Source: Escherichia phage EP335. From it: a DNA stretch of 64,000 nt. The stretch's first letter is position 1, and every line of letters begins with the position of its first letter. The stretch is taken from sequence record MG748548; one strand, given 5' to 3'. The notes beneath the pieces are model-generated. The model was not told where the DNA came from. It ran no database searches and saw only the letters and a program-made list of their open reading frames with translations. Both the position numbers and the translations under genes were made by a program. Below, in pieces: positions 16,657-30,782 of the stretch.

Positions 16657-19600
16657 ATGGCGTTATACCCTATAAAATCACTTGGGGCTGTCGGTGTTAT
16701 CGCTGATCAGGCACCAACTGATTTAGCACCTAACGCTTTCACCAACGCTATGAACGCTCGGTTTGTTGAGCAGAGAGTTTTTAAGACGGGGGGCAATGCC
16801 CCTCTTTCTTACGTGGAAGAAGACAAAGATCTGACTCCACTCTCTTTTGTCTCCATGCCTTTCGATTATTATAGCGCAGGAAATAGCTTCCTTGTAGTAG
16901 GTACAGATAAGAAGTTATATAAACTGACAGATGAAAGCTTAACTGATATCAGTCGTAAAGTTGCTACGGTAACTAAGAAAGCTTCTGCTATCATAAAGAT
17001 TTATCCAGTGGTCTCAAGGATTGTTCCTAAAGAGAGTACTATCACAATGAACTTTAACCAGACAAAAGAGTTAGAAGTTCAGGTTTTTCCAGAGGATGCT
17101 AATAATGCTAATCTGACTTGGGAAGTAAGTAACCCTTCTTATGCCAGTATTGCAGTAAATCCTACAGATTCTAAAAAAGCCACCCTCACTACATTATCTA
17201 CAGAAGGAACACTGTCCATTACTGTTTCCATTGAAGATGAATCTGTGACAGCTCAAATCTCCGTTAACATTGTTGATGGGGATACGGGTATCTTCTTGAG
17301 TCAAGACACAATCACAATTCGAAGAGGTGGTACAACAACTCTTACTGCTATCTCAGGTAAGACTCCTATCACTTGGATTAGTAGCAATGGTGGTGCTTTG
17401 TCTGTGACACCCAATGCCAATACACTAACTGCTGTTCTCAATGCCATGGGAGAAGGAACTTTTACTGTTACAGCTGATAATGGCTCTAAGTCTGCTACCT
17501 GTACAGTTAATGTGATACCTCAGATTGATTCTATTTCTCTGAGTCAGACAGATGTTCAGATGGATAGAGGGACTCAGTATGTTCTAACTGCAACAGTCAA
17601 CCCTGCTGATGCTCCTAATAAAGCAATCACTTGGACTTCTTCCAATCCTAATATTGCTACAGTATCAGGGACAAGCACAGAGGCTACAATTACTGGACTT
17701 CTGGCTGGGTTTACAGAGATTACAGCAGTAACAGAGGAAGGTAGTCGTTCAGCTGTTTGTACTGTTCGTGTCAACCTAGCAGGTAGAATGCTAAATACCA
17801 GAAGCCTAGCGATGGCTGCTAGTGCACCTCTAGTGGAAGAGTTCAAAGAGGAAGAAGAACCAGTTGTGCAGAATGAAGAAGTTGTTTACTTCATGTCTGA
17901 CTCTATGGGAATTGATACCTCTGGCATGGCTGAAGGCAATAACTTCTTTGACTACTCTAACGTATTTGATATGGAAGGTTTTGCTCGTGCTGCGGAGAAC
18001 TCAAGAGCTGCTCCTCTGACAAATGTGACACTAGATATTGTTGAAGCTTCTCTAGATGTAGGTGAAGAAATTGTCATAACTGCTACAGCAGCTCCAGAAG
18101 GGGATTACTCCTATCAGTGGGTTGTTGACAAGAGTGGTTATGTTTCTACTACCTCAACAACTGGAAGATCTTTGAAACTTACAGCTGTTCGTAAAGGCGA
18201 GATTAAAGTTACATGTACGGCGAGTCAGATGACTCAAAGAGACTACGATGCTTTTGATGATTACCCTTGGTATCATGCAGTAATCTCTAACTGTGCAGTA
18301 GCGACAACTCACTATGAAACTCCTCAGGTTAAAGAATTCGAATCTGAATACTTTACAGACCTTCCGGGCTGGGGTGAACAAACAATTGTTGATGGTGATG
18401 GGAACCCTTCTGTTCGTAAGTTTAACTGGAAGTGCGAAAGGGTTAGAGCTTTTAACAACAGATTGTTTGCTCTGAATATGAGGGAATCTAATGCCTCTGG
18501 TGTTACCACTCACTATCCTTTACGTCTTCGCTGGTCTAACTTTGCGAACGAGAACAAGGCTCCTACTTTGTGGGATGATTATGCTTACGATCGACTGACA
18601 ACTTCTGATCTTTCAGCGAACATTGTTGGGCAGACTGAAGCTCTTGAGAATGGTTATGCAGGGTATATTGATCTGGCTGACTCTAACGGTAGTTTGATTG
18701 ATGTTCTCCCTTTGAAAGATTACTTATTTGTTTACACCGAGTTTGAAACCTACATCGGTTCTCCTACTAACAACACATACCAGCCTCTGATGTTTAAGAA
18801 GCTGTTTAACGATTCAGGTATTCTTGCTCCTGAGTGTGTGGTTGAAGTAGAGGGTGGTCACTTTGTTGTAACACAGAACGATGTGATTCTTCATAACGGT
18901 GCATCTAAGAAATCTATTGCATCTAACCGTGTCAAGAACATGCTTATTAATGAAGTGTGTTTGGTAAACCCTCTAGCTACTAGAGTTCACTTGCACCAAG
19001 ATAAGAAAGAAGTTTGGGTCATGTATGTTGGGCCGGGAGAGCCGAAAGAAAGTTTTGCTTGTACGAAGGCTGCGGTCTGGAATTACGAGTTTGATACTTG
19101 GTCTTTCCGTACTATCCCGTATGCTCAATGTATTGGTCTTGTTGATCCTCCTGTTCTCGAAAGAGGTCCAGTGTGGACTGACTTCCAAACTATCACTTGG
19201 GACGACCCTGCTATTGATAAACTGGTGTGGAGAAAGGATGCAACTAACTTCCGTCAGAGAATTACTATCGTAGGCTCTTTCTTAAGGGGTTTCTATCAAG
19301 TAGATGTTGGTGCTTTGGATTATTTCTATGACAGAGCGAATGACAAAATAATAGAGCGCCCTCTGGAAATGAGGTTAGAGAGAACAGGGATTGATTTTGA
19401 TAACGTCACTAACGAATGGAATCAAAAACACATCAACCGGTTCAGACCTCAGACTACAGGTTCTGGTACGTATATCTTTGAAGCTGGAGGTAGTCAATTC
19501 TCTAACGAGTATGGTCACAACCACACAACTAAGAGTTATACGATTGGAGTTGATAGGCACGTAGCTGTGAGACTGAACCATCCATACCTATTCTATAATG

Positions 19601-19677
19601 TTATAGATAATGATGTTAACAGTAACGCAGCCATAAATGGGCTGACAATAGAGTTTAATGTTGGCGGTCGAAGATAA
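16657..19677 (+). CDS. large structural protein with Big_2 Ig-like domains
   Basis: 1006 aa; aaggagg RBS; repeated Big_2-like segments (ITWISSNGG, ITWTSSNPNIATVSG..ATITGLLAGFTEITAVT). Confidence 0.55.
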   Translation: MALYPIKSLGAVGVIADQAPTDLAPNAFTNAMNARFVEQRVFKTGGNAPLSYVEEDKDLTPLSFVSMPFDYYSAGNSFLVVGTDKKLYKLTDESLTDISRKVATVTKKASAIIKIYPVVSRIVPKESTITMNFNQTKELEVQVFPEDANNANLTWEVSNPSYASIAVNPTDSKKATLTTLSTEGTLSITVSIEDESVTAQISVNIVDGDTGIFLSQDTITIRRGGTTTLTAISGKTPITWISSNGGALSVTPNANTLTAVLNAMGEGTFTVTADNGSKSATCTVNVIPQIDSISLSQTDVQMDRGTQYVLTATVNPADAPNKAITWTSSNPNIATVSGTSTEATITGLLAGFTEITAVTEEGSRSAVCTVRVNLAGRMLNTRSLAMAASAPLVEEFKEEEEPVVQNEEVVYFMSDSMGIDTSGMAEGNNFFDYSNVFDMEGFARAAENSRAAPLTNVTLDIVEASLDVGEEIVITATAAPEGDYSYQWVVDKSGYVSTTSTTGRSLKLTAVRKGEIKVTCTASQMTQRDYDAFDDYPWYHAVISNCAVATTHYETPQVKEFESEYFTDLPGWGEQTIVDGDGNPSVRKFNWKCERVRAFNNRLFALNMRESNASGVTTHYPLRLRWSNFANENKAPTLWDDYAYDRLTTSDLSANIVGQTEALENGYAGYIDLADSNGSLIDVLPLKDYLFVYTEFETYIGSPTNNTYQPLMFKKLFNDSGILAPECVVEVEGGHFVVTQNDVILHNGASKKSIASNRVKNMLINEVCLVNPLATRVHLHQDKKEVWVMYVGPGEPKESFACTKAAVWNYEFDTWSFRTIPYAQCIGLVDPPVLERGPVWTDFQTITWDDPAIDKLVWRKDATNFRQRITIVGSFLRGFYQVDVGALDYFYDRANDKIIERPLEMRLERTGIDFDNVTNEWNQKHINRFRPQTTGSGTYIFEAGGSQFSNEYGHNHTTKSYTIGVDRHVAVRLNHPYLFYNVIDNDVNSNAAINGLTIEFNVGGRR

Positions 19678-19682
19678 CAACT

Positions 19683-19711
19683 AAGGGGCTTCGGCCCCTT
19701 TTCTTGTTTTT
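19683..19711 (+). terminator. rho-independent terminator (UUCG tetraloop hairpin)
   Basis: aaggggc-ttcg-gcccctt followed by ttcttgttttt. Confidence 0.55.
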
Positions 19712-19728
19712 AAACTTTGGAGGTACTT

Positions 19729-20739
19729 ATGGGTGCTGGAGGTTTTCGTAAGAATACTGGACGTAACAACACCACACTTCCCTACAACGTTGGGTTTCTC
19801 AACAGGGTAGAGGATACAGAAACGTATAACACTGCTGTCTATGATGAATTACAGAAAGTCAGTACAGCGACTAACCAAATGTTCCAAGCAATCGACGAGA
19901 TTCATGATGAGATTGATGTTCGTATCAAAGCTCTTAACGCAATGAATCTCCAGTTCGATGAGCTTGAGAATCGAATTACTACAGAGATTGAAACAGCTAT
20001 TGCAGACATTCAAACTCAAATGGGCAATCTATCTACGGATGATATTTGGGATAACTCAACGAATCCTCCTACTAAATTGAACGGTACGGTAGCTGGTATT
20101 AAAACTAGCATTGAAGGTAATGATTTAAAGATTCAAACTGTTCAAGGCATTGTGAATGAGCAAGGACAAGAGATTGCTTTAGTTCAAACAGAACTTACAA
20201 CTCAAGGTCAGAAGATTGTGGATGTTGATGGAAGGGTTACAACTGTACAGAACTCTCTTTCTCAATATATGAAGCTTACCGAATATGAAGCTACTTGGGG
20301 TGTGAACTCAAGTGTTAACGGTCGGTATGCAGGAGTTAAGTTAACTAACAACGGAACGAACAGTGCTTTCCAAGTAACTGCTCAGAAGTTTATTGTCGGT
20401 GATGGTAGCTCTGGTAACACCCCTTTCGTCTTTGAGAATGGTAGGGCTAGAATGGAGTTCGCTGATATAAAGAATGTCAACATCACAACTGCCATGATTG
20501 CTAATGCTCGTATCCAGTTTGCTCAGATTGATAATGTATGGATTCAAGATGGTCAGATTGCTAACCTAACAGCTAACAAGATTACTGCTGGTAGTATGTC
20601 CGGCTCTAACTGGAGACTTACAGTAGGTGGGGATTTTGTAATGGGCGGAACAGGTGGGGCACAGCTTTGGATGAATGGAAACAGAATTGATTTCTATGAT
20701 GGGAGTGGTGCTTTGAGAATTAGAATAGGGAGTTGGTGA
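19729..20739 (+). CDS. virion structural protein (putative tail/fibre-associated)
   Basis: ATG 19729 with ggagg RBS (track start 19717 is TTG); coiled-coil N-terminus. Confidence 0.45.
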   Translation: MGAGGFRKNTGRNNTTLPYNVGFLNRVEDTETYNTAVYDELQKVSTATNQMFQAIDEIHDEIDVRIKALNAMNLQFDELENRITTEIETAIADIQTQMGNLSTDDIWDNSTNPPTKLNGTVAGIKTSIEGNDLKIQTVQGIVNEQGQEIALVQTELTTQGQKIVDVDGRVTTVQNSLSQYMKLTEYEATWGVNSSVNGRYAGVKLTNNGTNSAFQVTAQKFIVGDGSSGNTPFVFENGRARMEFADIKNVNITTAMIANARIQFAQIDNVWIQDGQIANLTANKITAGSMSGSNWRLTVGGDFVMGGTGGAQLWMNGNRIDFYDGSGALRIRIGSW

Positions 20740-20740
20740 T

Positions 20741-21772
20741 ATGGCATATGGAATTTGGGCACAACCTGTAGGGCCGGGGCCAGCTGCCCCTGCTCCTCTC
20801 TTTATAGATAGCGGGAGTACTTTCCCTCAGATAAAGAATACCATAAGTGGTAGTTTCAACTTTAACGGCGGTGGGAGATCTTTCCCTATTAGTGGGTGGG
20901 ATGGTTCAGGTCAGATTGTTATTGTCCCAACAGGATCTCTTTGTTGGCAATGGGAAGTCCCACCTAACCTAGTACCAGATGTTTATTGTGTAAACAATAT
21001 CTACGTAGAGAACACCACATCATTTCGTGTCAACCTTAACCAGAACCCCGGAAGCAACCCTCTTTTCGATTGTGGTTTTAACGTTTACCAAATCTGGCCC
21101 AGAGCTGATAGGAACTACGGTATAACCTTTTCTAACACAGCGGATTACTTCTCTATCTCTGATGCTGGAGTTGTTGGTCAGTGTGTTTGGGCTTGGCAAG
21201 GAACAATAAACAATGCTTTACAAATTCCAGATATCGGTGGATTCTACATGCCTAACGCTGTGGTTTTTGCTAACTGGTCTGATGGTGGTTTAGGTCTATC
21301 TTACACTTCTGGTGACAGGGTTATACGTGTTTATCAAAACCGTCCATATATTAATGGAAACACTAACGAAGGTGGTTCTGTCTTTGCTAGGGTTGCTGTG
21401 TTTTGTAATGGTGCTGGAGTTCCTGAGCACAATGGTGGTTTGAATATTTACTCACCGGGAACTGCACAGTGTGTATTCTCGACAAATAGGACACCTTTTA
21501 CCATCGACAATTTTATAGGCTCTGGTGGGGGTAACACTGGAATGGCTTACCCTATGATACCTCTTTCCTCTGGTATTGGGGCTATAAAGGGTCAAGGAAG
21601 TGGTTGGAGATATCAGCAGATGAGATCTCATACAATGTCCGGTTCTAGTGTAGGAACGGGTTATGGGAGATATCTTTTCCAGTGGGATCAGAATTATGAT
21701 TTAGGGTCTGATACTGTGGTCAATTTATCTATACCTGTAATTAATGCAGCTAAAGTTTTTGCTGGTTTATAA
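20741..21772 (+). CDS. virion structural protein (putative)
   Basis: ORF track 343 aa; start overlaps upstream stop. Confidence 0.45.
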   Translation: MAYGIWAQPVGPGPAAPAPLFIDSGSTFPQIKNTISGSFNFNGGGRSFPISGWDGSGQIVIVPTGSLCWQWEVPPNLVPDVYCVNNIYVENTTSFRVNLNQNPGSNPLFDCGFNVYQIWPRADRNYGITFSNTADYFSISDAGVVGQCVWAWQGTINNALQIPDIGGFYMPNAVVFANWSDGGLGLSYTSGDRVIRVYQNRPYINGNTNEGGSVFARVAVFCNGAGVPEHNGGLNIYSPGTAQCVFSTNRTPFTIDNFIGSGGGNTGMAYPMIPLSSGIGAIKGQGSGWRYQQMRSHTMSGSSVGTGYGRYLFQWDQNYDLGSDTVVNLSIPVINAAKVFAGL

Positions 21773-21784
21773 CAAGGAGAGATT

Positions 21785-22579
21785 ATGGATAGGATTTTAG
21801 GAGTTTCAGAACTAGACCCACTGGTTCAACAAGCTGCTAAGAAGTATGGTATTCCTGCTGCTCTTGTTCATGCGGTCATTCAGAGGGAATCTAGTGGTAA
21901 GCCCTCTGCCGCTTCAGGAACAGGGCCAGTAGGGCTAATGCAGATTAGTAAAAGTTTGGCTAAAGATTATGGTTACAAACTAGAAGACCGTCTAGACCCA
22001 GCTAAGAATATTGACATGGGTGCTAGATATATCAAGGACAACTTAAAAGCATTTAATGGTGATGTAAGAAAGGCAATGGTAGGTTATTCAGAAGGGACTG
22101 GTGGTGCTAAGCAAATGTTTGCTGGTAAGAAAGGGTTCACCCCTCAAGCACTAGACTCCATGAACAACAAACACTTCCTCCCTTTCTTCAACCCTAATGA
22201 TGCAGCAAGACAGACAGCAAACCCTGTAGGAGCTTTACAGGAGGCTCAAGTTGTAGATCAATACAATCCATCAACACTAACTCGTGAGGGTGCTGCAAAC
22301 GCTCCTACACAGGCTGAGGTGATGGCTAGTAAGACAGGCGCTCTTGGTGGGAAACCTGCCGAGTTCTACGCTGAAGAAGTACAAGGTCAAGATCAACAAA
22401 GACCTCAGAACTTTGGGAATGCTGCACTTGCTGCTGCTGCAATGTTGGCTGGTAAAGTTCCTAACTCACAGACTGTTCAAAGAGCACATGCACCTACTGG
22501 AGCTTCCTCTAATTACAGTTCTCAAACTCAAGCGGTGCTCAGACGTTTAGCAAGCATCGGTACAGACATTTACAGGTAA
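21785..22579 (+). CDS. lytic transglycosylase (SLT domain) virion protein
   Basis: SLT motif AVIQRESSGKPSAASGTGPVGLMQIS; aaggagag RBS. Confidence 0.7.
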   Translation: MDRILGVSELDPLVQQAAKKYGIPAALVHAVIQRESSGKPSAASGTGPVGLMQISKSLAKDYGYKLEDRLDPAKNIDMGARYIKDNLKAFNGDVRKAMVGYSEGTGGAKQMFAGKKGFTPQALDSMNNKHFLPFFNPNDAARQTANPVGALQEAQVVDQYNPSTLTREGAANAPTQAEVMASKTGALGGKPAEFYAEEVQGQDQQRPQNFGNAALAAAAMLAGKVPNSQTVQRAHAPTGASSNYSSQTQAVLRRLASIGTDIYR

Positions 22580-22588
22580 GGAGGTTCT

Positions 22589-23635
22589 ATGTCTCTCTTC
22601 GGTTCTTCGGCTAAATCTAAAGTTACAGTATCGCCTTCTTCTCAAGTGGATGCTCTGTTACGTCAGATTGTTTCCAACGCTCAAGGAATGAATAAAGGTC
22701 AATTTGTTGGTCGTGAAATGGCAGGATTCAATCAGAATCAAAGTGCTGCTCTCTCAGGTTTGGCTAACTCTGATGTACAGAAACAATTGGCTGCTCTTTA
22801 TACGCCTCGTACTCAGCAAGGCTTAGACCAGATGAATACTCTGGCCCAGCGATATCAGAGTATGGCAAACGGTGGTGGTGTTACTGGTCAAGCTGTTAAT
22901 GATTATAGCAAATCCCTGAATAACTCGGCTCTTGCACAAGCCACAGGTAAAGCAGCTTCTAATGTATCTCTTGGCAATGGCTCTGATTCTGGTTCACTCC
23001 GTCGTGCTAGTGCTCAAGGTGCTGCTCTGGCTAGTGCAAACACTAACCTCTCTCGTAGTATAGATGGTAAGAACATGGGGATTAATAACCTCCAGAACAA
23101 TGAAGCTTTCCAACGTGGTATCCTAGGTGCTCAGACAGGTCTGGCTGGTCAGAATCTTAACTTGGGTGCACAAGGTGTTCAGGCTACTCAGCAAGCCATT
23201 CAGAATCAGCTCTTGGCTGGTAATCTGCAACAGCAGCAAGATCAGACTCAGGCTAACCTTAATTGGGAGAATGCTATTGGTAATCAACAGTTCGGTTGGA
23301 ATCAACTCAACAACCAGCTTAATGTACTTAACTCAGTAAGTCCTATGGCTGGGTACACAATCAAGAATGCACAACCCGGTGTTAGTCAAGGGCAGCAACT
23401 GCTTGGTGCAGGTATGACTGGACTAGGTATTGCAGGTCGCTTAGGTGCTTTCACTCCTAATGCTCAGACTCAGAATGCTTGGAACTCTTACAACGCTTCT
23501 GGTGGACAATCCGGTATGGCTGGTCCTATGATTGGTGGGTCTAACCTTTCTAATCAACAGAGTCAAAACAACTGGCTATCTACCGCAGGTAATAATATTT
23601 TAGGTGGTGTTCTTGGAGCATTCGGGGCTAACTAA
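22589..23635 (+). CDS. Q/N-rich virion protein with Gly-rich hydrophobic C-terminus (putative internal/ejection protein)
   Basis: 348 aa; aaggagg RBS; paralog of next gene (shared N-terminal M.LFG...GFN.NQ..AL). Confidence 0.5.
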   Translation: MSLFGSSAKSKVTVSPSSQVDALLRQIVSNAQGMNKGQFVGREMAGFNQNQSAALSGLANSDVQKQLAALYTPRTQQGLDQMNTLAQRYQSMANGGGVTGQAVNDYSKSLNNSALAQATGKAASNVSLGNGSDSGSLRRASAQGAALASANTNLSRSIDGKNMGINNLQNNEAFQRGILGAQTGLAGQNLNLGAQGVQATQQAIQNQLLAGNLQQQQDQTQANLNWENAIGNQQFGWNQLNNQLNVLNSVSPMAGYTIKNAQPGVSQGQQLLGAGMTGLGIAGRLGAFTPNAQTQNAWNSYNASGGQSGMAGPMIGGSNLSNQQSQNNWLSTAGNNILGGVLGAFGAN

Positions 23636-23647
23636 GGAGAAAACTTT

Positions 23648-24616
23648 ATGGCTTTATTCGGTGGTGGGGGTGGTTCTACTACCTCCAAAATGACAAGACC
23701 TGACTATATTCAGAGTTACATTGATCAATTAGTTAATCAAGTAAACAACACAAGTTCAGGCGATTATGTTTATCGAGAGAATGTAGGGTTTAATAATAAC
23801 CAGAACCAAGCTCTTAACGATCTTGCTCAATCTGGTGCCCTAGGTGCTCTCTCTTCTCAATATATGGATGCAGCTGGTCAAGGGTTAGGTTATATGGATA
23901 ATGCCTACCAAGGCTTTAATAACCTCTCCGGACAGGGGCCTATCTCAGCAGAACAGATTGGTGCTCTTGCTGGTGAACTCTACGACGATTCTGCTGTACA
24001 AGCAGCTATTACTGCTAACAACGAACAAACTCAACAGAGTCTGGCACGTAATGCTCTTCCTCAACTGGCTCAGCAATATGCTGGTCAACAAGGTTCTGGT
24101 GCTCGTATGGCTAAATCTTTTGCTCAGGGTGATGCTCTGAATCAGATGCAGAATACAGCAACCAACATTACTAACAGTGCTTATGACTCTGCTTTAGGAC
24201 AAGCTCAGAACATCCTCTCTGGAAACAGACAGAACCAAGCAGCTGCTCTTAGTGGACTCTCTAACATTGGTGGTAACTTGGCAGGCCTTGGTCAGCAAGG
24301 TGCTCAGTTGTCACAACAGCAATTAACTAATCAATGGGGTGCTGGTTTGCAGCAACAGCAACAGCAACAAGCCGGTTTGGATAATGCTTATCAGAATGCT
24401 CAGAACGCAGCTAATTGGGGATGGCAAGATATTAATAATCAACTAGGTGCAGCAGGCGTCCTTAATGGTGCTCTCGGAACGACTACAACTACTAAAACAA
24501 CTGGTGGCGGCGGTGGTTTCCTTGGTGGGGCAGCAAGTGGTGCAGCAGCTGGTTCAGCGTTTGGACCTTGGGGTGCATTAGCTGGTGGTGTTATTGGTGG
24601 CTTATCCTCTACCTAA
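23648..24616 (+). CDS. Q/N-rich virion protein paralog with glycine-zipper-like C-terminus
   Basis: 322 aa; aaggag RBS; C-terminus GGGGGFLGGAASGAAAGSAFGPWGALAGGVIGG. Confidence 0.5.
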   Translation: MALFGGGGGSTTSKMTRPDYIQSYIDQLVNQVNNTSSGDYVYRENVGFNNNQNQALNDLAQSGALGALSSQYMDAAGQGLGYMDNAYQGFNNLSGQGPISAEQIGALAGELYDDSAVQAAITANNEQTQQSLARNALPQLAQQYAGQQGSGARMAKSFAQGDALNQMQNTATNITNSAYDSALGQAQNILSGNRQNQAAALSGLSNIGGNLAGLGQQGAQLSQQQLTNQWGAGLQQQQQQQAGLDNAYQNAQNAANWGWQDINNQLGAAGVLNGALGTTTTTKTTGGGGGFLGGAASGAAAGSAFGPWGALAGGVIGGLSST

Positions 24617-24630
24617 CTAGGAGATTAATT

Positions 24631-26295
24631 ATGCAACAAACTTCATATGCGTACCTCCGTAGTCGAGACCCACGCAATCAGATTTATGGTGTAAGTCAGG
24701 GAGGGGCACAAGCCTCTCCTTATGTTCCTCGTCCTGCTTACCCACAAGCAGATATGTCTGTTTATACCCGTCCTAATATGGCTCCTGCTGGATTAGCTGG
24801 ATTGGTTTCTCAGGCTAATGAAGATCAAGAAGCAATGCTTGGTCCAAACAAACAAGTTGTTCAGGGTGCTAATATCCAACCTGATATTCCTAACGAAACT
24901 CCTGTAGCAGCCTCTCAGTCAGCTTCTCCGTTTGCTAACGATGAAAGCATGGTTGCTGCTGGCCTTTCTCCAGAAACTGCTTCTCAAGAGTTCTCAGACC
25001 CTCTACCGGTAAGTGTTCCTCCTAAACCGTTGGAACCTACTGATACAGAGTTTACTCAAGACCAAGTTAAACAGGCACAACAGGTTATGTCAACCCTTTC
25101 TTCCGGCTTACCTGAAGCTGAAGGTATGGCAGGTGCTTCTCGTAGCGCTGATCAAGAACGTGTTAACAAGGATTTAATGGAAGTGGCTAAGGCTAAGAAC
25201 CCGATGGAAGAGTGGGGTAAGTTACAGAAACAACCTTTCTATCAGAACTCTAGCTTCTATACAGGTTTGATGGGTGTAGGTCTTTCTATTATGTCAGGTA
25301 AGTCTCCTATTGAAGCTTTCCAGATTGGTTCTGGTATGGCTGCACAGGATGAGACTAAGAACCAACTTGAAGCTAACCGCGAATCTCTTATTGAACAGGG
25401 TTACTCTCCAGACTCAGTTGCTGCTGCAATTGCTACTGGTGACCCTTCTGCTCTGAAGATGCGTCAGATTAGTCCTCAAGAGAAACTTGCTTTGTCTGCT
25501 ATCGAAGATGAGAGAGCTAACCGTGAATGGGACAGACGCCAACAGGTTAGTGAGCAGTCTATGAGTCGTAGGATGGATGCAACTCGCCAAGCTGCTGAAC
25601 AACGTGCACAAGAACAGTTTGCTCGTCAGAAAGAGTTGATTGGGTATCGTGATCAAGTGAAAGCTGATCGTGCTGAACAAGCTGCTAAGAGTTTTAATTT
25701 TAACCCGAAAGAAGTTCGTCTTGCTCAGAACACAGCTGAAGGTACAGTTGCTAAGCAGTGGGCAGAGAAAGGTGGTCTGTTTAACCAGTCCCATAAAGAC
25801 TTGGACTTGGCAGATCAGGCAGTTAAAGATAAAGACTACCAGACAGCTCGTTCTGCTTACATGCAGGCTATCATGAACTCCGCAAGGGCTGAAATCGGTG
25901 CTACTCGTTCTCTGACTGAAGAAGACTTACGTCACTTTGCAGAAGACCCCTCAATCTTTGTTAAGGTTGGTAATACTTGGTCTCTGAAAGGTGGGTATCG
26001 TCCTACTGATGCTGCTCTTGCTTATGCTCGTAAGCAGGCAACCGTTGGTGCTACTTCAGCAATGAAGGGTGTTAAGGATGCTAAGAAAGCAACCATTGAA
26101 GCTTACGTTGGTTCTGGTATGGATAAGAAACGTGCTACTGCACTTGTTAACCGTGCGATACCTTCTGGTGGTTTCTATGACCCGTTAGGTACTTTTGAAT
26201 CACAGGCTGAGGAAGAGGTTGGTGGTGCTGCTACTAATCCACGCCTGAATGGTGCTCTTTCAGCTTCTGAAGATACTAGCTGGTTCACTCAATAA
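24631..26295 (+). CDS. virion protein (putative internal protein)
   Basis: ATG 24631 preceded by taggag; track ORF begins further upstream in overlap with previous gene. Confidence 0.45.
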   Translation: MQQTSYAYLRSRDPRNQIYGVSQGGAQASPYVPRPAYPQADMSVYTRPNMAPAGLAGLVSQANEDQEAMLGPNKQVVQGANIQPDIPNETPVAASQSASPFANDESMVAAGLSPETASQEFSDPLPVSVPPKPLEPTDTEFTQDQVKQAQQVMSTLSSGLPEAEGMAGASRSADQERVNKDLMEVAKAKNPMEEWGKLQKQPFYQNSSFYTGLMGVGLSIMSGKSPIEAFQIGSGMAAQDETKNQLEANRESLIEQGYSPDSVAAAIATGDPSALKMRQISPQEKLALSAIEDERANREWDRRQQVSEQSMSRRMDATRQAAEQRAQEQFARQKELIGYRDQVKADRAEQAAKSFNFNPKEVRLAQNTAEGTVAKQWAEKGGLFNQSHKDLDLADQAVKDKDYQTARSAYMQAIMNSARAEIGATRSLTEEDLRHFAEDPSIFVKVGNTWSLKGGYRPTDAALAYARKQATVGATSAMKGVKDAKKATIEAYVGSGMDKKRATALVNRAIPSGGFYDPLGTFESQAEEEVGGAATNPRLNGALSASEDTSWFTQ

Positions 26296-26302
26296 GACCT
26301 AA

Positions 26303-26318
26303 GTCCTGCCTTCTATAA
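26303..26318 (+). promoter_or_regulatory. promoter-like motif CTATAATGTATATAGG
   Basis: TATAAT hexamer inside TAATGTATATA motif about 45 nt upstream of ATG 26361. Confidence 0.35.
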
Positions 26319-26360
26319 TGTATATAGGGGGTAGGACATTTTTATTTATAAGGAGACGTT

Positions 26361-29300
26361 ATGGCTAACATTAAATCTTGGGAAGAAGCATCGAAAAGCC
26401 CCAAGTATATGAACGCAACTCCTGAGCAACAAGCTCAGTTGAGAGAGCAATACAAAGCGGCAGGTGGTACAATCCCTGAAGATAAGCCAGTACAACCACA
26501 ACAAGAAGAGCGTGGCTTAGTTGGTGAGTTCGCTCAGGGCGTATCTAATGCTATCGAATCTGGTGGAGCTAATATTGCAGCTAGTACCGCTCGTGGTTTA
26601 GGTGGTCTGGTTGAAATGGGTGAGAACGTTCTCGGTTCCCAAACAAGTTATGGTAAAAGAATTCAAGATAACGCAAAACAAGTATTAGAAAAGCGTATGG
26701 CTGGTATCGAGGATGGCTTTGGTAAGACTGCTGGGCAGTATGCTGGAGTGGCTGCTGATATTGGTTTGACGGTTGCTAACCCAGCTTTGGCTGCTGGTGT
26801 TATTGCGGGACGTGAAGCAGGTCGAGCTTATGCAGACCAGACCCCAGAAGAGGGAGAAGACAAGTCAGTGTTAGATGCTGCTCTTGTTGGTGGTGCTAAC
26901 TTTGCAGCTCAGAAGATTCTTCCGGGTTTTACAGGAACAGCTGAATCTACTTTAGGTCGTATTGGTCAGAGTGCTGCTTCTAACGCCGTGGCTGGCGCTA
27001 AGGGTGGTGCTCTCGTAGGTGCTGCTGAAGCTCAGAATAAGTATGGTGATGACACTACACTTGCCAATGTACTAGAAGGTGCAATTGATGAAGGTGTTGC
27101 TGGTGCTGCTTATGGTGGAGCTATCGGTGGTGTTCATGGTGCAATTAGTCGCCCTAGTCCTCAAGTGTTTGATAAGACTCCTGAGAATGTTAAGACTGAT
27201 ATCTCCGCTGAAGATGAAGCAATTCGTAGTGCGAAGAATGCTGATGAACTCCGTGAAGCTTACTCTCAAGCCGATACTGCTAACACAGCTTCCGCTCTTA
27301 ACCTGCTAGACCAGAACGATTTCCGTATTACAGATGCTGTGGCTATGGATTCTCCTGCTGCCCAACGTATCCTTAATACTGACCAGACTCGTGCTGAGAA
27401 AGCTGCTTCCTCTCTTACAGAGCGTTCTAATATTCCGGGTCTTAATCCTCTTGTTTCTCCAAGTAAGGTCAAGGGTAAAGCTTTTGCGGATAACGAACAT
27501 AACCAGAAGCAAGCCGTAGCAATGAAAGATGCAATGGCTGACTACACTAAAGACAACACCAAGGCTCTTAATGATGTTCTTGATAACCTAGACCGAGAGT
27601 TGAACGACCTTCGTGTTCGTGGTGACTTTACTGGTAGTGCTATTGACATTAAGAATCAGACTCGTAACGATCGTGATTTCATTGATGCTTACAAGAACTT
27701 CTATACTGAAGCAAACAGATTCAAAGCTCGTGATGGCGAAGACTTTAATAACTTTGTAGAGAAAGCTACTGAACTACAGAAACTTGCTGACAATGTTTCT
27801 CCAGAGATGAAGCAAGCTATTGGCGGTTTGAAGAAACTCAAAGGTATGCCTGAAGGTTTCAACCCTATCCAAGATGCCTTTACTCTGAACAACACAGCTA
27901 AACTAATGAGTAATCAAGACCGTGGTTGGACGACACTGACAGATGATGGTTTCCGTGAAGCCTCTTCTCCAAGCTTTGTTATGAACACCCTAGGTGCTGC
28001 TAAGTATGCTCTGAACCGCTTCTCTTCAGAGAGGGCTAGATCTCAACGTGCTCGACAGCAGGACTCAAACAGTGAAGCAATTCGCTCTTTGGCTCGTGGT
28101 GATTTAGAGGTTGCTCGTGCTCGAAGAGCAGCAGCAAAAGCACGCGAAGAAATGGAAGCCGAACCGGTTGTTGATGACGTCCAATTTAAGACGCAAGCTG
28201 ATGACCAAAATCAGGCTGGTTCTGAACCTTCTTCTCCAGCTACTGTGACGGAAGATTTCTCTCCTTCTCCAGCTCCTTTAACTGCTCGTGATTTGGTTGC
28301 TCAAAGACGTGCCATCCGACAGGCGGAACAACGCCGTGCAGAGGAAGAAGCGCAAGCTGCTCAGAATGCTCCAGTTGAACCAGAAGCTCCAGCAGAAACT
28401 TTACCTACGCGTAACCCTCTTGAGGAACGTAGAGTGCAAGAAGCTGAGATGGAACAACAGCGTGCAGCAGAAGAGGCTGCTAAAGCTCCTGAGACGCCCG
28501 TAGAAGAGTCTACAGCTAAAGCTGAGCCATTACCTGCTCGTGCTCCTAAAGCTCCTAAGGAAGCTGCTCCTGAGGTTAAACCGGCTACTGGTGTAGAACG
28601 TCTTGCTGCTATGTCAACAGCTGCTCGTCAGGCTACTAAAAACCGTGCTGAACGTTTTGCTCGTTCTCTGTATACTGCTGGTGCTAAAGCTAAAGCTACT
28701 GCGGAAAACTTCTTGGCTTACAAAGGGGACCCGAAAGAGTTAATGCGTCGTATCCGTCAGGAAGACCAAGCGAACAATGCTGCTCGTCATGAAGAGATGG
28801 CTCGCAACCAATTAACTTCTCAGCAAGGTATTGCAGCTGCTAAGTCTAACCGAGTTCGTTCTGCATTCTCCGATTGGGTTAAAGAACGTGGACTACCTTC
28901 TGAAATCGCCTCTAAAGCCCTGCGTGCTGAAGAACGTGGATTGGATGGTAACGTGTCAAGTCTAGACTCTCTGAAGCGTAGAGCTGAGCGTATGTATCAG
29001 AAAGAACGTGATGATGAGTTTGATAGAATGTATCGTGAAGCTCTGGAAGAAAACAAAGCTTTCGATAAGAACGATGCACCTAAGCTGAAAGACCAGAAGG
29101 CTGAGTTCCAGTCAGAGATTGATTCTCTGCTTGAGAGCGAACCTCTTCGTCCTGCTCAGAAAGATGCAATGCGTAAGATGATGAGTGATTTTGTTGATGG
29201 GAAGTTTAAAGCGGCTGAGAAAGCTGGAAGGGAAGAAGCTTTAGAGGTTGGTCAAATGAAGGATTTGTGGGATGGGTTTATTAATACCTACAATCGTGAA

Positions 29301-30782
29301 GTTGGCATGTTCAATAAAGCTAACAAGAACTCTCAGTATGAAGCAGCAGCTAAACATCTACAGGCTCGTGAAGAACGTCTTACCTCTTTACGTAACAGAG
29401 CAGAAGCTCGTGCTCAAGCGAAAGCTACAGCAGAAGCTGAACGTCAGTCACTCGAAGCGATTGCTGGTCAGAAGACTGAGATAGAGAAGATGTTTGATGA
29501 GTTACCTAAACCTGTCCGCGAGGCTCAGGAAAGTCGTACTCTGAAACAGCTTGCAGCTCACCATGATAAGAACTCCCCTGTTCCTCCAGAACGTTTCCGT
29601 AGTATTATCGAACGTATCCATAACGCAGAGTCAGACTACCTTGATCGTAAGCGTCGTCTCACTGATGCAGAGGAAGATGCTCGTGAAGCTAAGTGGAACA
29701 AGATGTATGAACAAGCAGAGGAGATGAACCGTAAGTTCGATATAGATGCTCGTGTATCCCGTGATAAGAGCCTCAAAGAAGCTCAGGAGCGACAGAATGA
29801 TCTCATGGCAGTACAACGCCAACGTGATGACATTCATAGCCGTCTGGTGCGTTCTATCGAAGATAAGGGCATCCCTAAAGCTGATGCTGAAGCATTTGCT
29901 GGTTCTTATATGGATAACCGTTATGCTCTTCTTGAAAAACCTATGACCCCTACCGAACACCAGAATGCTCGTGCACGTATTGAGTCCGATGTAGAGAAGT
30001 TTGCTAAGAAGTATGAAAGCTTGTCTCCTATTGAGAAAGACGTGGTTAAGATTACTGGTGATGTGGAAGGTAAACTGGATGGGTTGGATGCTGAGACTGT
30101 GAAGGCAGTTGAGGAAGCTAGGAAGGTTGACTCTGATATTAAGAAACTTCAGGACGAAGAGTTGGAAATGGAGAAAATCCGTTCAGCTTTACCTGATGAT
30201 GAAAAGTCTCAGGCAAATTCCGACATTCTGGAAAGCATCAAAAAGCAAGAAGATGAGTTTGCAGGGAAGGTTGAGAAGGCATTCTTGGAAGGCAAGGACT
30301 TGAAGGAACTGGCTAGTGTTGCAGAGGTTCTGGATAGGGTTCATGGTGCTGACAAGGCTGGGAACAACCGTAGATTTGTTCGTGCTCTACAGACTGCTGC
30401 TGACAACAAGAAGAAGTATGGGGATAATCCGGTAGCTTGGTTTAGTGCTGATGATTACTCTGCTATTGCTAAACTTGGTGCTGCATCAGCGGGCGGTAAC
30501 AAATCGAGAGCGTTGGAGAAGATCTTTGGTTCTACAGCAGATCAAGCTAAGGCTAAGCTTTTGGGGAGAGATGATGTAGCGAAGATGAGACGTGTGATTG
30601 AAGCGAATCCTGAAGTCAAGATTCCTTCTTACAAGACTACTACTCGTCAAGAGTATTTACAGTTCTTGGAGAAGTATAATGATGAGGGAGTGTTGAAAGT
30701 CAAACGTGGTTCTCTGTCTGACAAATTAGAAAGGAATAAGCGTCAAGCTAAACTCCGTGTTAGAGTTCGCTCGAAAGAGTAA
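26361..30782 (+). CDS. large virion protein (putative internal/DNA-ejection protein), 1473 aa
   Basis: aaggag RBS; long A/E/K/R-rich coiled-coil content; last gene of structural block. Confidence 0.5.
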   Translation: MANIKSWEEASKSPKYMNATPEQQAQLREQYKAAGGTIPEDKPVQPQQEERGLVGEFAQGVSNAIESGGANIAASTARGLGGLVEMGENVLGSQTSYGKRIQDNAKQVLEKRMAGIEDGFGKTAGQYAGVAADIGLTVANPALAAGVIAGREAGRAYADQTPEEGEDKSVLDAALVGGANFAAQKILPGFTGTAESTLGRIGQSAASNAVAGAKGGALVGAAEAQNKYGDDTTLANVLEGAIDEGVAGAAYGGAIGGVHGAISRPSPQVFDKTPENVKTDISAEDEAIRSAKNADELREAYSQADTANTASALNLLDQNDFRITDAVAMDSPAAQRILNTDQTRAEKAASSLTERSNIPGLNPLVSPSKVKGKAFADNEHNQKQAVAMKDAMADYTKDNTKALNDVLDNLDRELNDLRVRGDFTGSAIDIKNQTRNDRDFIDAYKNFYTEANRFKARDGEDFNNFVEKATELQKLADNVSPEMKQAIGGLKKLKGMPEGFNPIQDAFTLNNTAKLMSNQDRGWTTLTDDGFREASSPSFVMNTLGAAKYALNRFSSERARSQRARQQDSNSEAIRSLARGDLEVARARRAAAKAREEMEAEPVVDDVQFKTQADDQNQAGSEPSSPATVTEDFSPSPAPLTARDLVAQRRAIRQAEQRRAEEEAQAAQNAPVEPEAPAETLPTRNPLEERRVQEAEMEQQRAAEEAAKAPETPVEESTAKAEPLPARAPKAPKEAAPEVKPATGVERLAAMSTAARQATKNRAERFARSLYTAGAKAKATAENFLAYKGDPKELMRRIRQEDQANNAARHEEMARNQLTSQQGIAAAKSNRVRSAFSDWVKERGLPSEIASKALRAEERGLDGNVSSLDSLKRRAERMYQKERDDEFDRMYREALEENKAFDKNDAPKLKDQKAEFQSEIDSLLESEPLRPAQKDAMRKMMSDFVDGKFKAAEKAGREEALEVGQMKDLWDGFINTYNREVGMFNKANKNSQYEAAAKHLQAREERLTSLRNRAEARAQAKATAEAERQSLEAIAGQKTEIEKMFDELPKPVREAQESRTLKQLAAHHDKNSPVPPERFRSIIERIHNAESDYLDRKRRLTDAEEDAREAKWNKMYEQAEEMNRKFDIDARVSRDKSLKEAQERQNDLMAVQRQRDDIHSRLVRSIEDKGIPKADAEAFAGSYMDNRYALLEKPMTPTEHQNARARIESDVEKFAKKYESLSPIEKDVVKITGDVEGKLDGLDAETVKAVEEARKVDSDIKKLQDEELEMEKIRSALPDDEKSQANSDILESIKKQEDEFAGKVEKAFLEGKDLKELASVAEVLDRVHGADKAGNNRRFVRALQTAADNKKKYGDNPVAWFSADDYSAIAKLGAASAGGNKSRALEKIFGSTADQAKAKLLGRDDVAKMRRVIEANPEVKIPSYKTTTRQEYLQFLEKYNDEGVLKVKRGSLSDKLERNKRQAKLRVRVRSKE

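Follow-up and report, generated by a model that had tools for sequence, protein, structure and literature searches.

Two adjacent late genes of a coliphage encode proteins built largely of a few polar and small residues, and they raise the question of what these proteins are, how they are related to each other, and what part their glycine-rich segments may play in delivering the phage genome. The window analysed here is a 64,000-nucleotide stretch of DNA from Escherichia phage EP335 (MG748548). The first-pass annotation, made from the letters alone, read the two genes as paralogous virion proteins that end in stretches resembling membrane-inserting glycine zippers and plausibly act in ejection or channel formation.

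The two genes and their surroundings

The genes, referred to as ORFs A and B, lie between a lytic transglycosylase (SLT) gene and two larger genes, all on the plus strand.

21785-22579, plus strand: lytic transglycosylase, 264 aa, SU10 gp20 orthologue; first gene of the ejection block
22578-22584, plus strand: ORF A Shine-Dalgarno site AAGGAGG, read directly from the sequence, overlapping the SLT stop codon TAA (22577-22579)
22589-23635, plus strand: ORF A, 348 aa; Q/N/G/A/S-rich, charge-poor putative ejection protein; SU10 gp21 orthologue
23634-23639, plus strand: ORF B Shine-Dalgarno site AAGGAG, read directly from the sequence
23648-24616, plus strand: ORF B, 322 aa; ORF A paralogue; orthologue of SU10 gp22 and phiEco32 gp24
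24631-26295, plus strand: 554-aa putative ejection protein, SU10 gp23 orthologue (phrog_12130; 69% identity)
26361-30782, plus strand: 1473-aa putative ejection protein, SU10 gp24 orthologue (phrog_14629; 81% identity)

The coordinates originally assigned to the two genes are right, and both are real late ORFs, with strong Shine-Dalgarno sites and intergenic gaps of 9-14 nt that reflect tight late-gene packing. A TTG-initiated ORF at 24568, overlapping the end of ORF B, was rejected as an artefact of mechanical ORF calling, because the ATG at 24631 is preceded by a Shine-Dalgarno site (AGGAG, 7 nt upstream of the start of the 554-aa gene) and is the start annotated for this gene in relatives.

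The dominance of Gln, Asn, Gly, Ala and Ser that had been noticed holds, at about 62% of each ORF with about 7.5% charged residues. These five residues make up 61.8% of ORF A and 62.7% of ORF B versus 33.4% across the 41 ORFs in the window that reach 150 aa or more, whereas Asp, Glu, Lys and Arg account for 7.8% and 7.5%, respectively, versus 23.5% in the same set; ORFs A and B are thus the top two composition extremes of the window. The C-terminal tail is free of charge over 64 residues in ORF A and 39 in ORF B. Neither ORF matches any Pfam family at E <= 0.01.

Kuravirus relatives and virion location

The window DNA is approximately 96% identical to Escherichia phages KBNP1711 and KarlSchell_Bas89, in both of which the counterparts of the two genes are annotated as 'DNA ejection protein', and ORF A is 100% identical to a phage EP335 protein. 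Judged by these and the following similarities, the window is from a kuravirus-like coliphage of the phiEco32/SU10 type. The five genes from SLT to the 1473-aa ORF match SU10 gp20-gp24 one-to-one at 69-83% identity, including 79% for the lytic transglycosylase (Pfam SLT, E 4.6e-26; phrog_12507), 77% between SU10 gp21 and ORF A, and 83% between SU10 gp22 and ORF B. The 'DNA ejection protein' profile phrog_4287 covers residues 1-348 of ORF A (E 1.2e-102) and residues 1-310 of ORF B (E 3.8e-98). The late-operon order (SLT, A, B, mid, large) is common to phiEco32, SU10, Bas89, and an E. coli chromosomal element. SU10 gp21 and gp22, which correspond to phiEco32 gp23 and gp24 (the latter annotated as 'putative DNA injection protein'), have the lengths, order, and neighbours of A and B, and in SU10 they are released with the genome; there is no substantive difference, the window belonging to the same phage group.

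Siborova et al. found SU10 gp20-24 in virions but not in genome-release intermediates and termed them ejection proteins. Earlier proteomics had also detected gp21 and gp22 (PMC4281155), gp23 and gp24 are likewise virion proteins, and the SU10 maps contain no density for gp21/gp22; gp21 is labelled 'hypothetical' in the literature consulted. The virion mass spectrometry that the first-pass annotation had proposed as a check was already in print for both orthologues, and its ejection reading agrees with their presence in virions and loss on genome release, at 77-83% identity to A and B. The status of ejected virion protein is thus established experimentally for close orthologues, and the assignment of ORFs A and B as ejection proteins is supported by homology and already known.

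Since the relatives are already annotated and experimentally characterised, this finding is correct but ordinary, and its discovery value is small: the genes carried annotations, and exit from the virion together with the genome had been demonstrated for the SU10 orthologues. Three links are of some modest use, as they can guide study of how a DNA channel is built in prolate kuraviruses, phages that are used or considered for phage therapy. First, gp21 and gp22 are an old paralogue pair that was retained; second, B carries a sharply conserved double GxxxG ladder like the tail of P22 gp7; and third, the family appears to be tied remotely to a proposed Bruynoghevirus outer-membrane channel protein and to relatives bearing a Peptidase_S74 domain. 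These links supply concrete residues and constructs for testing.

The SU10 data record only presence in the virion and absence after release, and the needle is lost at that step too. A and B could accordingly, instead of being stored in the capsid, reside in the tail lumen or sit with the needle, forming a plug or a filler akin to a tape measure that leaves with the needle and has no lasting channel role, and the SU10 portal barrel does contain unassigned density. We consider this improbable, as the SU10 authors group gp21/gp22 as ejection proteins together with the 163-kDa protein and the enzyme of the SLT type; further evidence on both sides comes from the conserved motifs and the remote relatives discussed below.

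Paralogy of ORFs A and B

The N-terminal pattern reported as common to the two proteins (M.LFG ... GFN.NQ..AL..LA.S) is visible in their BLASTP alignment, which extends over 266 aa at 28% identity (E 2e-6). Profile-profile comparison (hhalign) aligns them over 274 columns with a probability of 99.9% and an E value of 1.4e-34, and at this level the assignment of A and B as true paralogues is firm. An A-like/B-like pair also follows the SLT gene in the E. coli chromosomal element, with 38% identity to ORF A (E 4e-39) and 44% to ORF B. Because A and B remain adjacent even in such approximately 40%-identical relatives, they are probably not redundant, and they may form a mixed ring. In the literature searched, no statement of gp21/gp22 paralogy or of the glycine ladder was found.

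The extreme composition of both ORFs, their lack of Pfam membership, and the absence of heptad periodicity (see below) would all suit a reading in which the likeness of A to B and the 'zipper' are by-products of low complexity without specific function. This reading is refuted in practice, and we give it almost no credence: the two profiles are collinear over the 274 columns noted above, the glycine ladder and the W/N/P landmarks are position-conserved down to approximately 30% identity, the family profile is matched by 2584 cluster representatives, and the SU10 orthologues were detected by mass spectrometry.

Glycine-rich segments and conserved blocks

Four segments are relevant to the suggestion that both proteins end in glycine zippers.

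23264-23359, plus strand: most conserved core of the A family, A residues 226-257 (W.NA.G.QQF.WNQLNNQLNVLNSVSPMAGYT)
23396-23455, plus strand: first Gly-rich hydrophobic stretch of A, residues 270-289 (QLLGAGMTGLGIAGRLGAFT)
23573-23632, plus strand: Gly-rich hydrophobic C-terminus of A, residues 329-348 (WLSTAGNNILGGVLGAFGAN)
24503-24604, plus strand: double glycine ladder of B, residues 286-319, within the uncharged 39-residue tail

A transmembrane glycine zipper is defined by the pattern (G/A/S)xxxGxxxG or GxxxGxxx(G/S/T), which was the pattern used here. By this definition the suggestion stands for ORF B, whose zipper is canonical and conserved, but not for ORF A, which is only loosely Gly-rich and hydrophobic. 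The ladder of B reads G294-G298-G302-G306, then P307-W308, then G309-G313-G317; residues 286-322 contain nine overlapping matches to the pattern, the seven glycines are conserved at >=90%, and no other block of the B family is as strongly conserved as the zipper (column entropy 0.5-0.8 versus approximately 1.5). Such strong conservation of a membrane-type motif would be left unexplained if the proteins were a passive plug. Each GxxxG arm spans only about 12-15 residues.

In ORF A, the conserved core at residues 226-257 has a column entropy of 0.6-0.7, versus approximately 1.6 elsewhere, and contains many invariant columns. Residues 270-289 have the highest 19-residue Kyte-Doolittle mean in the protein (1.13) and are conserved across the family, but do not form a canonical GxxxG ladder. 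The C-terminal stretch (329-348; Kyte-Doolittle 0.89) is conserved only among closer relatives, and the last 50 residues vary. No conserved canonical zipper register was found in these two Gly-rich stretches, and the sole pattern match in ORF A (residues 308-316) is not conserved, so a zipper is not assigned to this protein.

The 19-residue maxima of the Gly-rich segments (1.07-1.13) indicate mild hydrophobicity and lie below the conventional threshold for a transmembrane helix, approximately 1.6. Both ORFs fall below the gathering thresholds of the Pfam glycine-zipper families PF13441 (Gly-zipper_YMGG) and PF05433 (Rick_17kDa_Anti), and the isolated tail of B scores 7.6 bits against the Pfam glycine zipper, for a cut-off of 24.2. 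Among 46 family members, eight match PF05433 and five match PF13441, all below threshold (best E 0.02 and 0.0049, respectively). The Gly-rich segments of A and the corresponding segment of a relative in Salmonella phage 7-11 match the B motif in nothing beyond composition. The terms 'glycine zipper' and 'ejection protein' were not found together in the literature searched.

Predicted structure

In AlphaFold2 monomer models built from family alignments, both chains are elongated and wholly helical, one helix of ORF A spanning 116 residues, except that the tails of both proteins are left as low-confidence coil; confidence is low overall (pLDDT 54.7 for ORF A and 44.1 for ORF B), and the models were used for secondary structure only. 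The ejection proteins of N4 and T7 have likewise been described as helical and elongated. Structural comparison, proposed earlier as a check, returned no PDB match better than E 0.4 for model A in Foldseek, with generic long-helix proteins only. In BFVD the same search gave only marginal matches, taken as a lead and not as evidence; some of them bear the name DNA transfer protein or S74 chaperone protein. A sequence search of the PDB yielded nothing for ORF A and only spurious matches for ORF B (E >= 0.03). The coiled-coil check fared no better: in Fourier analysis of alignment-averaged hydropathy, neither heptad nor hendecad periodicity rose above shuffled controls, which gives no support to a canonical coiled coil.

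Remote relatives among characterised ejection proteins

Among the closest characterised candidates outside the kuravirus-like group are proteins of Bruynoghevirus. Size, synteny, and genus identify LUZ24 gp53 (313 aa) as the counterpart of Pa223 gp56. LUZ24 gp53 matches phrog_4287 with E 2e-10, and the combined A and B profile over 174 columns with E 5.6e-4; for the single sequence the link is weak, with an hhalign probability of 30% and no significant pairwise BLASTP match. From the other side, the family member of phage 7-11 matches phrog_7477, to which the LUZ24 protein belongs, with E 2e-4, whereas phrog_7477 is absent from the matches of ORFs A and B at E <= 0.01. These profile matches suggest that the A/B family is remotely related to LUZ24 gp53 and Pa223 gp56.

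Pa223 gp56 is a virion protein by mass spectrometry, placed inside the capsid, which also argues against a location of A and B in the tail lumen or at the needle. It has been proposed to form a channel in the outer membrane in the manner of gp14; transmembrane helices are predicted at residues 278-291 and 296-311, and AlphaFold3 gives a nonameric channel model. This outer-membrane role is itself a prediction. Like A and B, the LUZ24/Pa223 protein is of similar length, heads a small, mid, large ejection operon, contains a central GSSRAGVA-type landmark, and ends in a Gly run followed by an uncharged Gly/Ala/Leu-rich tail; unlike them, it is a single-copy protein of another PHROG (7477). BLASTP detected no similarity of the 554-aa and 1473-aa proteins to LUZ24 gp51 and gp50.

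A second resemblance concerns P22 gp7, also a small Q/N/A/G-rich ejection protein. In hhalign, the C-terminal motif of B can be aligned to the very end of P22 gp7 with a probability of 87% and E 4e-6, over 35 low-complexity columns, the last 35 residues, to which the similarity is limited; only 2 of 2000 composition-matched shuffles scored as well. The two ends (GGGASGAIAGAGLAKLIGSSTPWGAAIGGGIGLL in P22 gp7 and GGAASGAAAGSAFGPWGALAGGVIGGL in B) are visibly alike, and both proteins, by themselves or via relatives, give sub-threshold Gly-zipper_YMGG signals. P22 gp7 differs from A and B in length (229 aa versus 322-348 aa), in having no similarity to them outside these residues, and in its N-terminal processing, of which A and B bear no sign; both ORFs score below the threshold of PF25688 (P22_gp7). 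No similarity to P22 gp20 was found. In the literature, P22 gp7 is assigned to the gp14-like, outer-membrane class, and a 2026 in situ preprint names it first among the proteins that assemble in sequence into the P22 channel.

The genes for A and B stand ahead of those for the 554-aa and 1473-aa proteins and thus head a small, mid, large set; they exceed the approximately 200 aa usual for the gp14 class and come near Pa223 gp56 (313 aa).

The DNA pilot protein H of phiX174 (approximately 330 aa), in which Gln, Asn, Ala, and Gly are abundant, spans the membrane with a segment of GxxxG type and oligomerises into an alpha-helical tube whose amide-lined lumen passes the DNA, its zipper being N-terminal. 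It is a possible functional analogy for the combination of Q/N-rich helices with a glycine zipper, with the differences that the zipper of B is C-terminal and that no coiled-coil periodicity was found in A or B.

Proposed role in the DNA channel

By analogy with these systems, A and B are probably duplicated small membrane-inserting ejection-channel proteins (T7 gp14/P22 gp7 class) of a kuravirus-like podovirus. They would be produced late in infection, enter the head along with the DNA, and leave through the tail after detachment of the needle; these steps are inferred from the 77-83% identity to SU10 gp21/gp22, for which they have been shown experimentally. They would then take the role assigned to T7 gp14, P22 gp7, and Pa223 gp56, that of the first membrane-proximal ring of a trans-envelope channel. 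With their polar character and near lack of charge, the long Q/N-rich helices may yield an elongated subunit that has no hydrophobic core, is slender enough for the portal and tail channel, and can oligomerise afterwards; the Gly-rich hydrophobic C-terminus, chiefly the GxxxG ladders of B, would serve helix-helix packing and insertion into the host membrane, with the outer membrane as the most likely site. The SLT protein would cut the peptidoglycan, and continuation of the channel as far as the cytoplasm would fall to the 554-aa and 1473-aa proteins: the former is a candidate periplasmic-tunnel component from its position, and the latter a candidate inner-membrane or cytoplasmic-end component from its size and position. 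The small, mid, large gene order agrees with other ejection operons.

The weak hydrophobicity of the tails, together with the fact that the SU10 nozzle and needle already handle the outer membrane, would also suit ejected proteins that line or extend a periplasmic conduit or enter the inner membrane, and that form no outer-membrane pore; the Q/N-rich helices would then provide a polar, uncharged lumen for the DNA, and the Gly tail would pack subunits instead of entering lipid. There are five ejection proteins and not three, so roles need not map one-to-one onto T7, and hydrophobic termini and channel formation are likewise found in N4 gp51, which is a tunnel protein. We nevertheless hold such a placement to be the less likely alternative, as Pa223 gp56 and P22 gp7, the characterised proteins nearest to A and B in sequence or motif, are assigned to the outer-membrane end, A and B occupy the operon slot held elsewhere by the small gp14-like gene, and the 554-aa protein fits the size of a tunnel protein more naturally.

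Single-copy relatives with a Peptidase_S74 domain

Outside the kuravirus-like group, relatives have a single copy of the family protein followed by a Peptidase_S74-like self-cleaving domain. They include proteins of Salmonella phage 7-11 (phrog_4287, E 2e-136), GAP52, Privateer, the Aeromonas LAh phages, and Ochrobactrum phage OH (p40; phrog_4287, E 2e-40). Like A and B, these proteins are encoded in a late operon beside a peptidoglycan hydrolase and larger proteins and have a Gly-rich hydrophobic stretch at the equivalent position; unlike A and B, they continue for approximately 60-90 extra residues that open with an SDxxxK Ser/Lys motif. Peptidase_S74 (PF13884; cut-off 22 bits) is matched by OH p40 (39 bits), P0163 (33 bits), and P0204 (26 bits), with 7-11 just under the cut-off at 20.5 bits, and is absent from ORFs A and B; ORF B ends three residues past the position of the S74-motif Ser. 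Domains of this type are typical of trimeric fibres and needles, and some family matches are annotated as tail fibre or tape measure, both of which would suit a needle-associated filler.

A broader scheme, which we offer as speculative and rather doubtful, would make phrog_4287 a very widespread class of gp7/gp14 type, whose older form is a precursor with a self-cleaving S74-type chaperone that first holds and later exposes a C-terminal glycine-zipper membrane anchor; kuravirus-like phages would have dropped the chaperone and acquired a second gene copy in its place, A and B solubilising each other and forming a mixed channel ring, and the long S74-bearing forms described next would be self-cleaving ejection polyproteins.

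In some phages, the family module stands at the N-terminus of proteins of 800-1600 aa, and in a few of these S74 follows immediately after it.

Gene Context and Annotation

The neighbouring late genes termed here A and B belong to a run ordered nozzle, needle, DUF6453, SLT, A, B, 554-aa and 1473-aa genes, in which gaps of 9-14 nt separate A and B from adjoining genes.

Features of the late-gene run
16657-19677, nozzle protein
19717-20739, tail needle
20741-21772, DUF6453 protein (343 aa, PHROG label "membrane protein"), between the tail needle and SLT genes
21785-22579, SLT transglycosylase
22578-22584, strong Shine-Dalgarno sequence AAGGAGG for A
22589-23635, + strand, A (348 aa)
23634-23639, strong Shine-Dalgarno sequence AAGGAG for B
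23648-24616, + strand, B (322 aa)
24631-26295, 554-aa protein
26361-30782, 1473-aa protein

This region shares ~96% DNA identity with Escherichia phages KBNP1711 and KarlSchell_Bas89; the figure for other phages of the phiEco32/SU10 type is ~77-79%. A protein of phage EP335 matches A at 100% identity. Identities to the kuravirus SU10 are 79% (SLT/gp20), 77% (A/gp21), 83% (B/gp22), 69% (554-aa/gp23) and 81% (1473-aa/gp24). Both A and B match phrog_4287, "DNA ejection protein", at ~1e-100, and neither matches a Pfam family. Relatives are presently annotated as "DNA ejection protein" for both genes; older annotations give "hypothetical" for A and "putative DNA injection protein" for B. SU10 ORF19, the counterpart of the DUF6453 protein, is listed as absent from the virion and undetected by mass spectrometry (MS), implying that the structural block is interrupted by a non-structural gene.

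Composition, Paralogy, and C-Terminal Tails

A and B are dominated by Q, N, G, A and S, as the first-pass annotation stated, and the bias is extreme: these residues account for 61.8% (A) and 62.7% (B) of the chain versus 33.4% across all 41 window ORFs of at least 150 aa, and charged residues for 7.8% and 7.5% versus 23.5%, the most extreme composition in the window. Such a bias raises the alternative that the resemblance between A and B merely reflects composition, a reading that can in effect be discarded. Pairwise alignment, in which the proposed common N-terminal pattern is indeed seen, spans 266 residues (28% identity, E 2e-6), and the family profiles align over 274 columns in hhalign (E 1.4e-34, probability 99.9%); judged by sequence, the two are beyond doubt paralogues.

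The suggestion of glycine-zipper ends stands in part. Both proteins have uncharged, Gly-rich C-terminal stretches (64 residues in A, 39 in B), and B carries a regular ladder (G294-G298-G302-G306, P307-W308, G309-G313-G317), whose positions are at least 90% conserved among 46 homologues with identity down to ~30%; this block is the best conserved part of the B family (entropy 0.5-0.8 vs ~1.5 elsewhere). A has two Gly-rich hydrophobic stretches (~270-289 and 329-348), for which a conserved GxxxG register was sought in the family and not found; the last 50 residues of that family are variable, and W226-T257 is its best conserved block.

Virion Location and Predicted Structure

Virion MS, a check proposed in the first-pass annotation, is positive for the close orthologues in SU10: ORF21 (350 aa) and ORF22 (322 aa) are detected in the virion (supplementary table, Siborova et al.), with 53% coverage for gp21 and 49% for gp22 (Khan Mirzaei et al. 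2014, PMC4281155), and no density is assignable to either in the structure (Siborova et al.). Both orthologues are packaged and exit the particle when the genome is released, in line with the ejection role first proposed; by this demonstration in SU10, A and B would behave likewise, and both are very probably ejection proteins. In substance, this finding is already known. The additions are small: paralogy stated explicitly, a conserved double ladder (B only), the gp7-tail likeness, the remote Pa223 gp56 link, and single-copy relatives with S74.

AlphaFold2 models built from family alignments are all-helical, with very long helices (135-250 in A) and Gly-rich tails as coil, at low confidence (pLDDT 54.7 for A, 44.1 for B). 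Fold searches against the PDB returned nothing significant, viral matches were marginal only, and coiled-coil periodicity was looked for in A and B and not found. The predicted slender helical chains, lacking a hydrophobic core of their own, fit descriptions of T7, DEV and N4 ejection proteins, a likeness that is not independent evidence.

Distribution and Single-Copy Relatives

Of 1.84 billion cluster representatives, 2584 match a combined A-type and B-type profile at E <= 1e-3, and 454 still do so at E <= 1e-10. A-like and B-like genes co-occur in kuravirus-like genomes, in metagenomic relatives, and in a chromosomal E. coli block (SLT, 334-aa A-like, 322-aa B-like, 498-aa and 1113-aa genes); the duplication is therefore old, with both copies kept. 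The 334-aa protein is 38% identical to A (E 4e-39), and the element resembles a prophage related to the kuraviruses, which are otherwise lytic. Large Enterobacter contigs hold comparable matches (P0038).

A single copy of ~380-420 aa occurs in the prolate podoviruses 7-11, GAP52, Privateer and Aeromonas LAh phages, and in smaller podoviruses such as Ochrobactrum phage OH, adjoining a peptidoglycan hydrolase and larger proteins. Here, a Gly-rich hydrophobic stretch is followed directly by an SDxxxK motif, which begins a C-terminal domain matching Peptidase_S74; in endosialidases, this domain is a self-cleaving intramolecular chaperone.

Relatives of A and B
GCA_023211535.1, contig DAHCAP010000002.1 (389 kb), 204317-225285, E. 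coli chromosomal element with SU10-type capsid, terminase, portal and ejection block
L006:9001-10239, phage 7-11 relative, Peptidase_S74 20.5 bits, just under the cut-off of 22
L007:6956-8095, Ochrobactrum phage OH p40, Peptidase_S74 39 bits, E 1e-9
P0044 and P0045, single-copy relatives, weaker Peptidase_S74 match

B ends three residues past the position equivalent to the motif's Ser. The motif suggests a self-cleaving precursor form of the A/B-type ejection protein in other podoviruses; no description of S74-bearing relatives was found in the searchable literature. Many proteins of 800-1600 aa carry an N-terminal phrog_4287 domain and then a long region without family match. Eight representatives were scanned with Pfam (P0150, P0153, P0156, P0163, P0170, P0189, P0204, P0236), two of which (P0163, P0204) have Peptidase_S74 at ~residues 300-350; these large proteins may be fused or polyprotein ejection proteins.

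Remote Links and a Possible Membrane Role

In the Bruynoghevirus LUZ24, gp53 (313 aa) is first in a 313/505/1055-aa gene set whose sizes fit Pa223 gp56/gp54/gp53; at the C-terminus of LUZ24 gp53, a run of Gly leads into a Gly/Ala/Leu tail. Residues 122-292 match phrog_4287 (E 2e-10); against the A+B profile, this single-sequence target aligns over 174 columns (E 5.6e-4, probability 30%), and the phage 7-11 family member matches phrog_7477, the PHROG of LUZ24 gp53 (E 2e-4). Pa223 gp56 is an MS-identified virion protein proposed as a T7 gp14-like outer-membrane channel; membrane helices are predicted at 278-291 and 296-311, and AlphaFold3 models a nonameric channel (Pa223 preprint).

Similarity between the P22 gp7 family and the B-family profile is confined to the extreme C-terminus, where 35 columns align (probability 87%, E 4e-6). 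P22 gp7 ends in ...GGGASGAIAGAGLAKLIGSSTPWGAAIGGGIGLLGSLF, and 2 of 2000 composition-matched shuffles score as high on the B-tail HMM as the real gp7 tail. P22 gp7 and T7 gp14 are classed together as the ejectosome's outer-membrane component; the in situ account describes sequential assembly templated by the tail hub, gp7* first, then gp20 and gp16. The Bruynoghevirus and P22 links are each weak and lie in low-complexity sequence, yet agree in direction.

We propose that, within the DNA channel, A and B are the small proteins at the membrane-proximal end. Each would traverse the tail as an extended helical chain and then form oligomers, possibly a mixed A/B ring, since both paralogues are always retained. 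Their Gly-rich C-termini would insert or pack in a host membrane, the outer membrane being the likeliest; SLT would next open the peptidoglycan, leaving the conduit to be completed by the 554-aa and 1473-aa proteins. This channel role is plausible, and we lean towards it. Counting against the membrane step are modest hydrophobicity (Kyte-Doolittle ~1.1), short zipper arms, and Pfam glycine-zipper thresholds that are not reached; A and B might instead act in the periplasm or inner membrane, or form a plug in the tail lumen that is shed along with the needle.

Neighbouring Genes and Transcription Signals

The 1473-aa ejection protein is rich in Ala/Glu/Lys/Arg, matches no Pfam family and has no BLASTP-detectable similarity to the 1055-aa LUZ24 gp50; the SU10 supplementary table labels its counterpart "Nuclear Pore Complex". 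For the 554-aa ORF, a TTG start (extension 24568-24630, overlapping the end of B) was considered, and ATG at 24631 is the likelier start, with AGGAG 7 nt upstream and agreement with annotated starts in relatives. Strong terminator-like hairpins followed by T-runs lie at 19683-19700, between the nozzle and tail-needle genes, and at 26303-26337 (15-bp stem), where the 554-aa gene is separated from the 1473-aa gene; together they would bracket a transcription unit of the needle, DUF6453, SLT, A, B and 554-aa genes.
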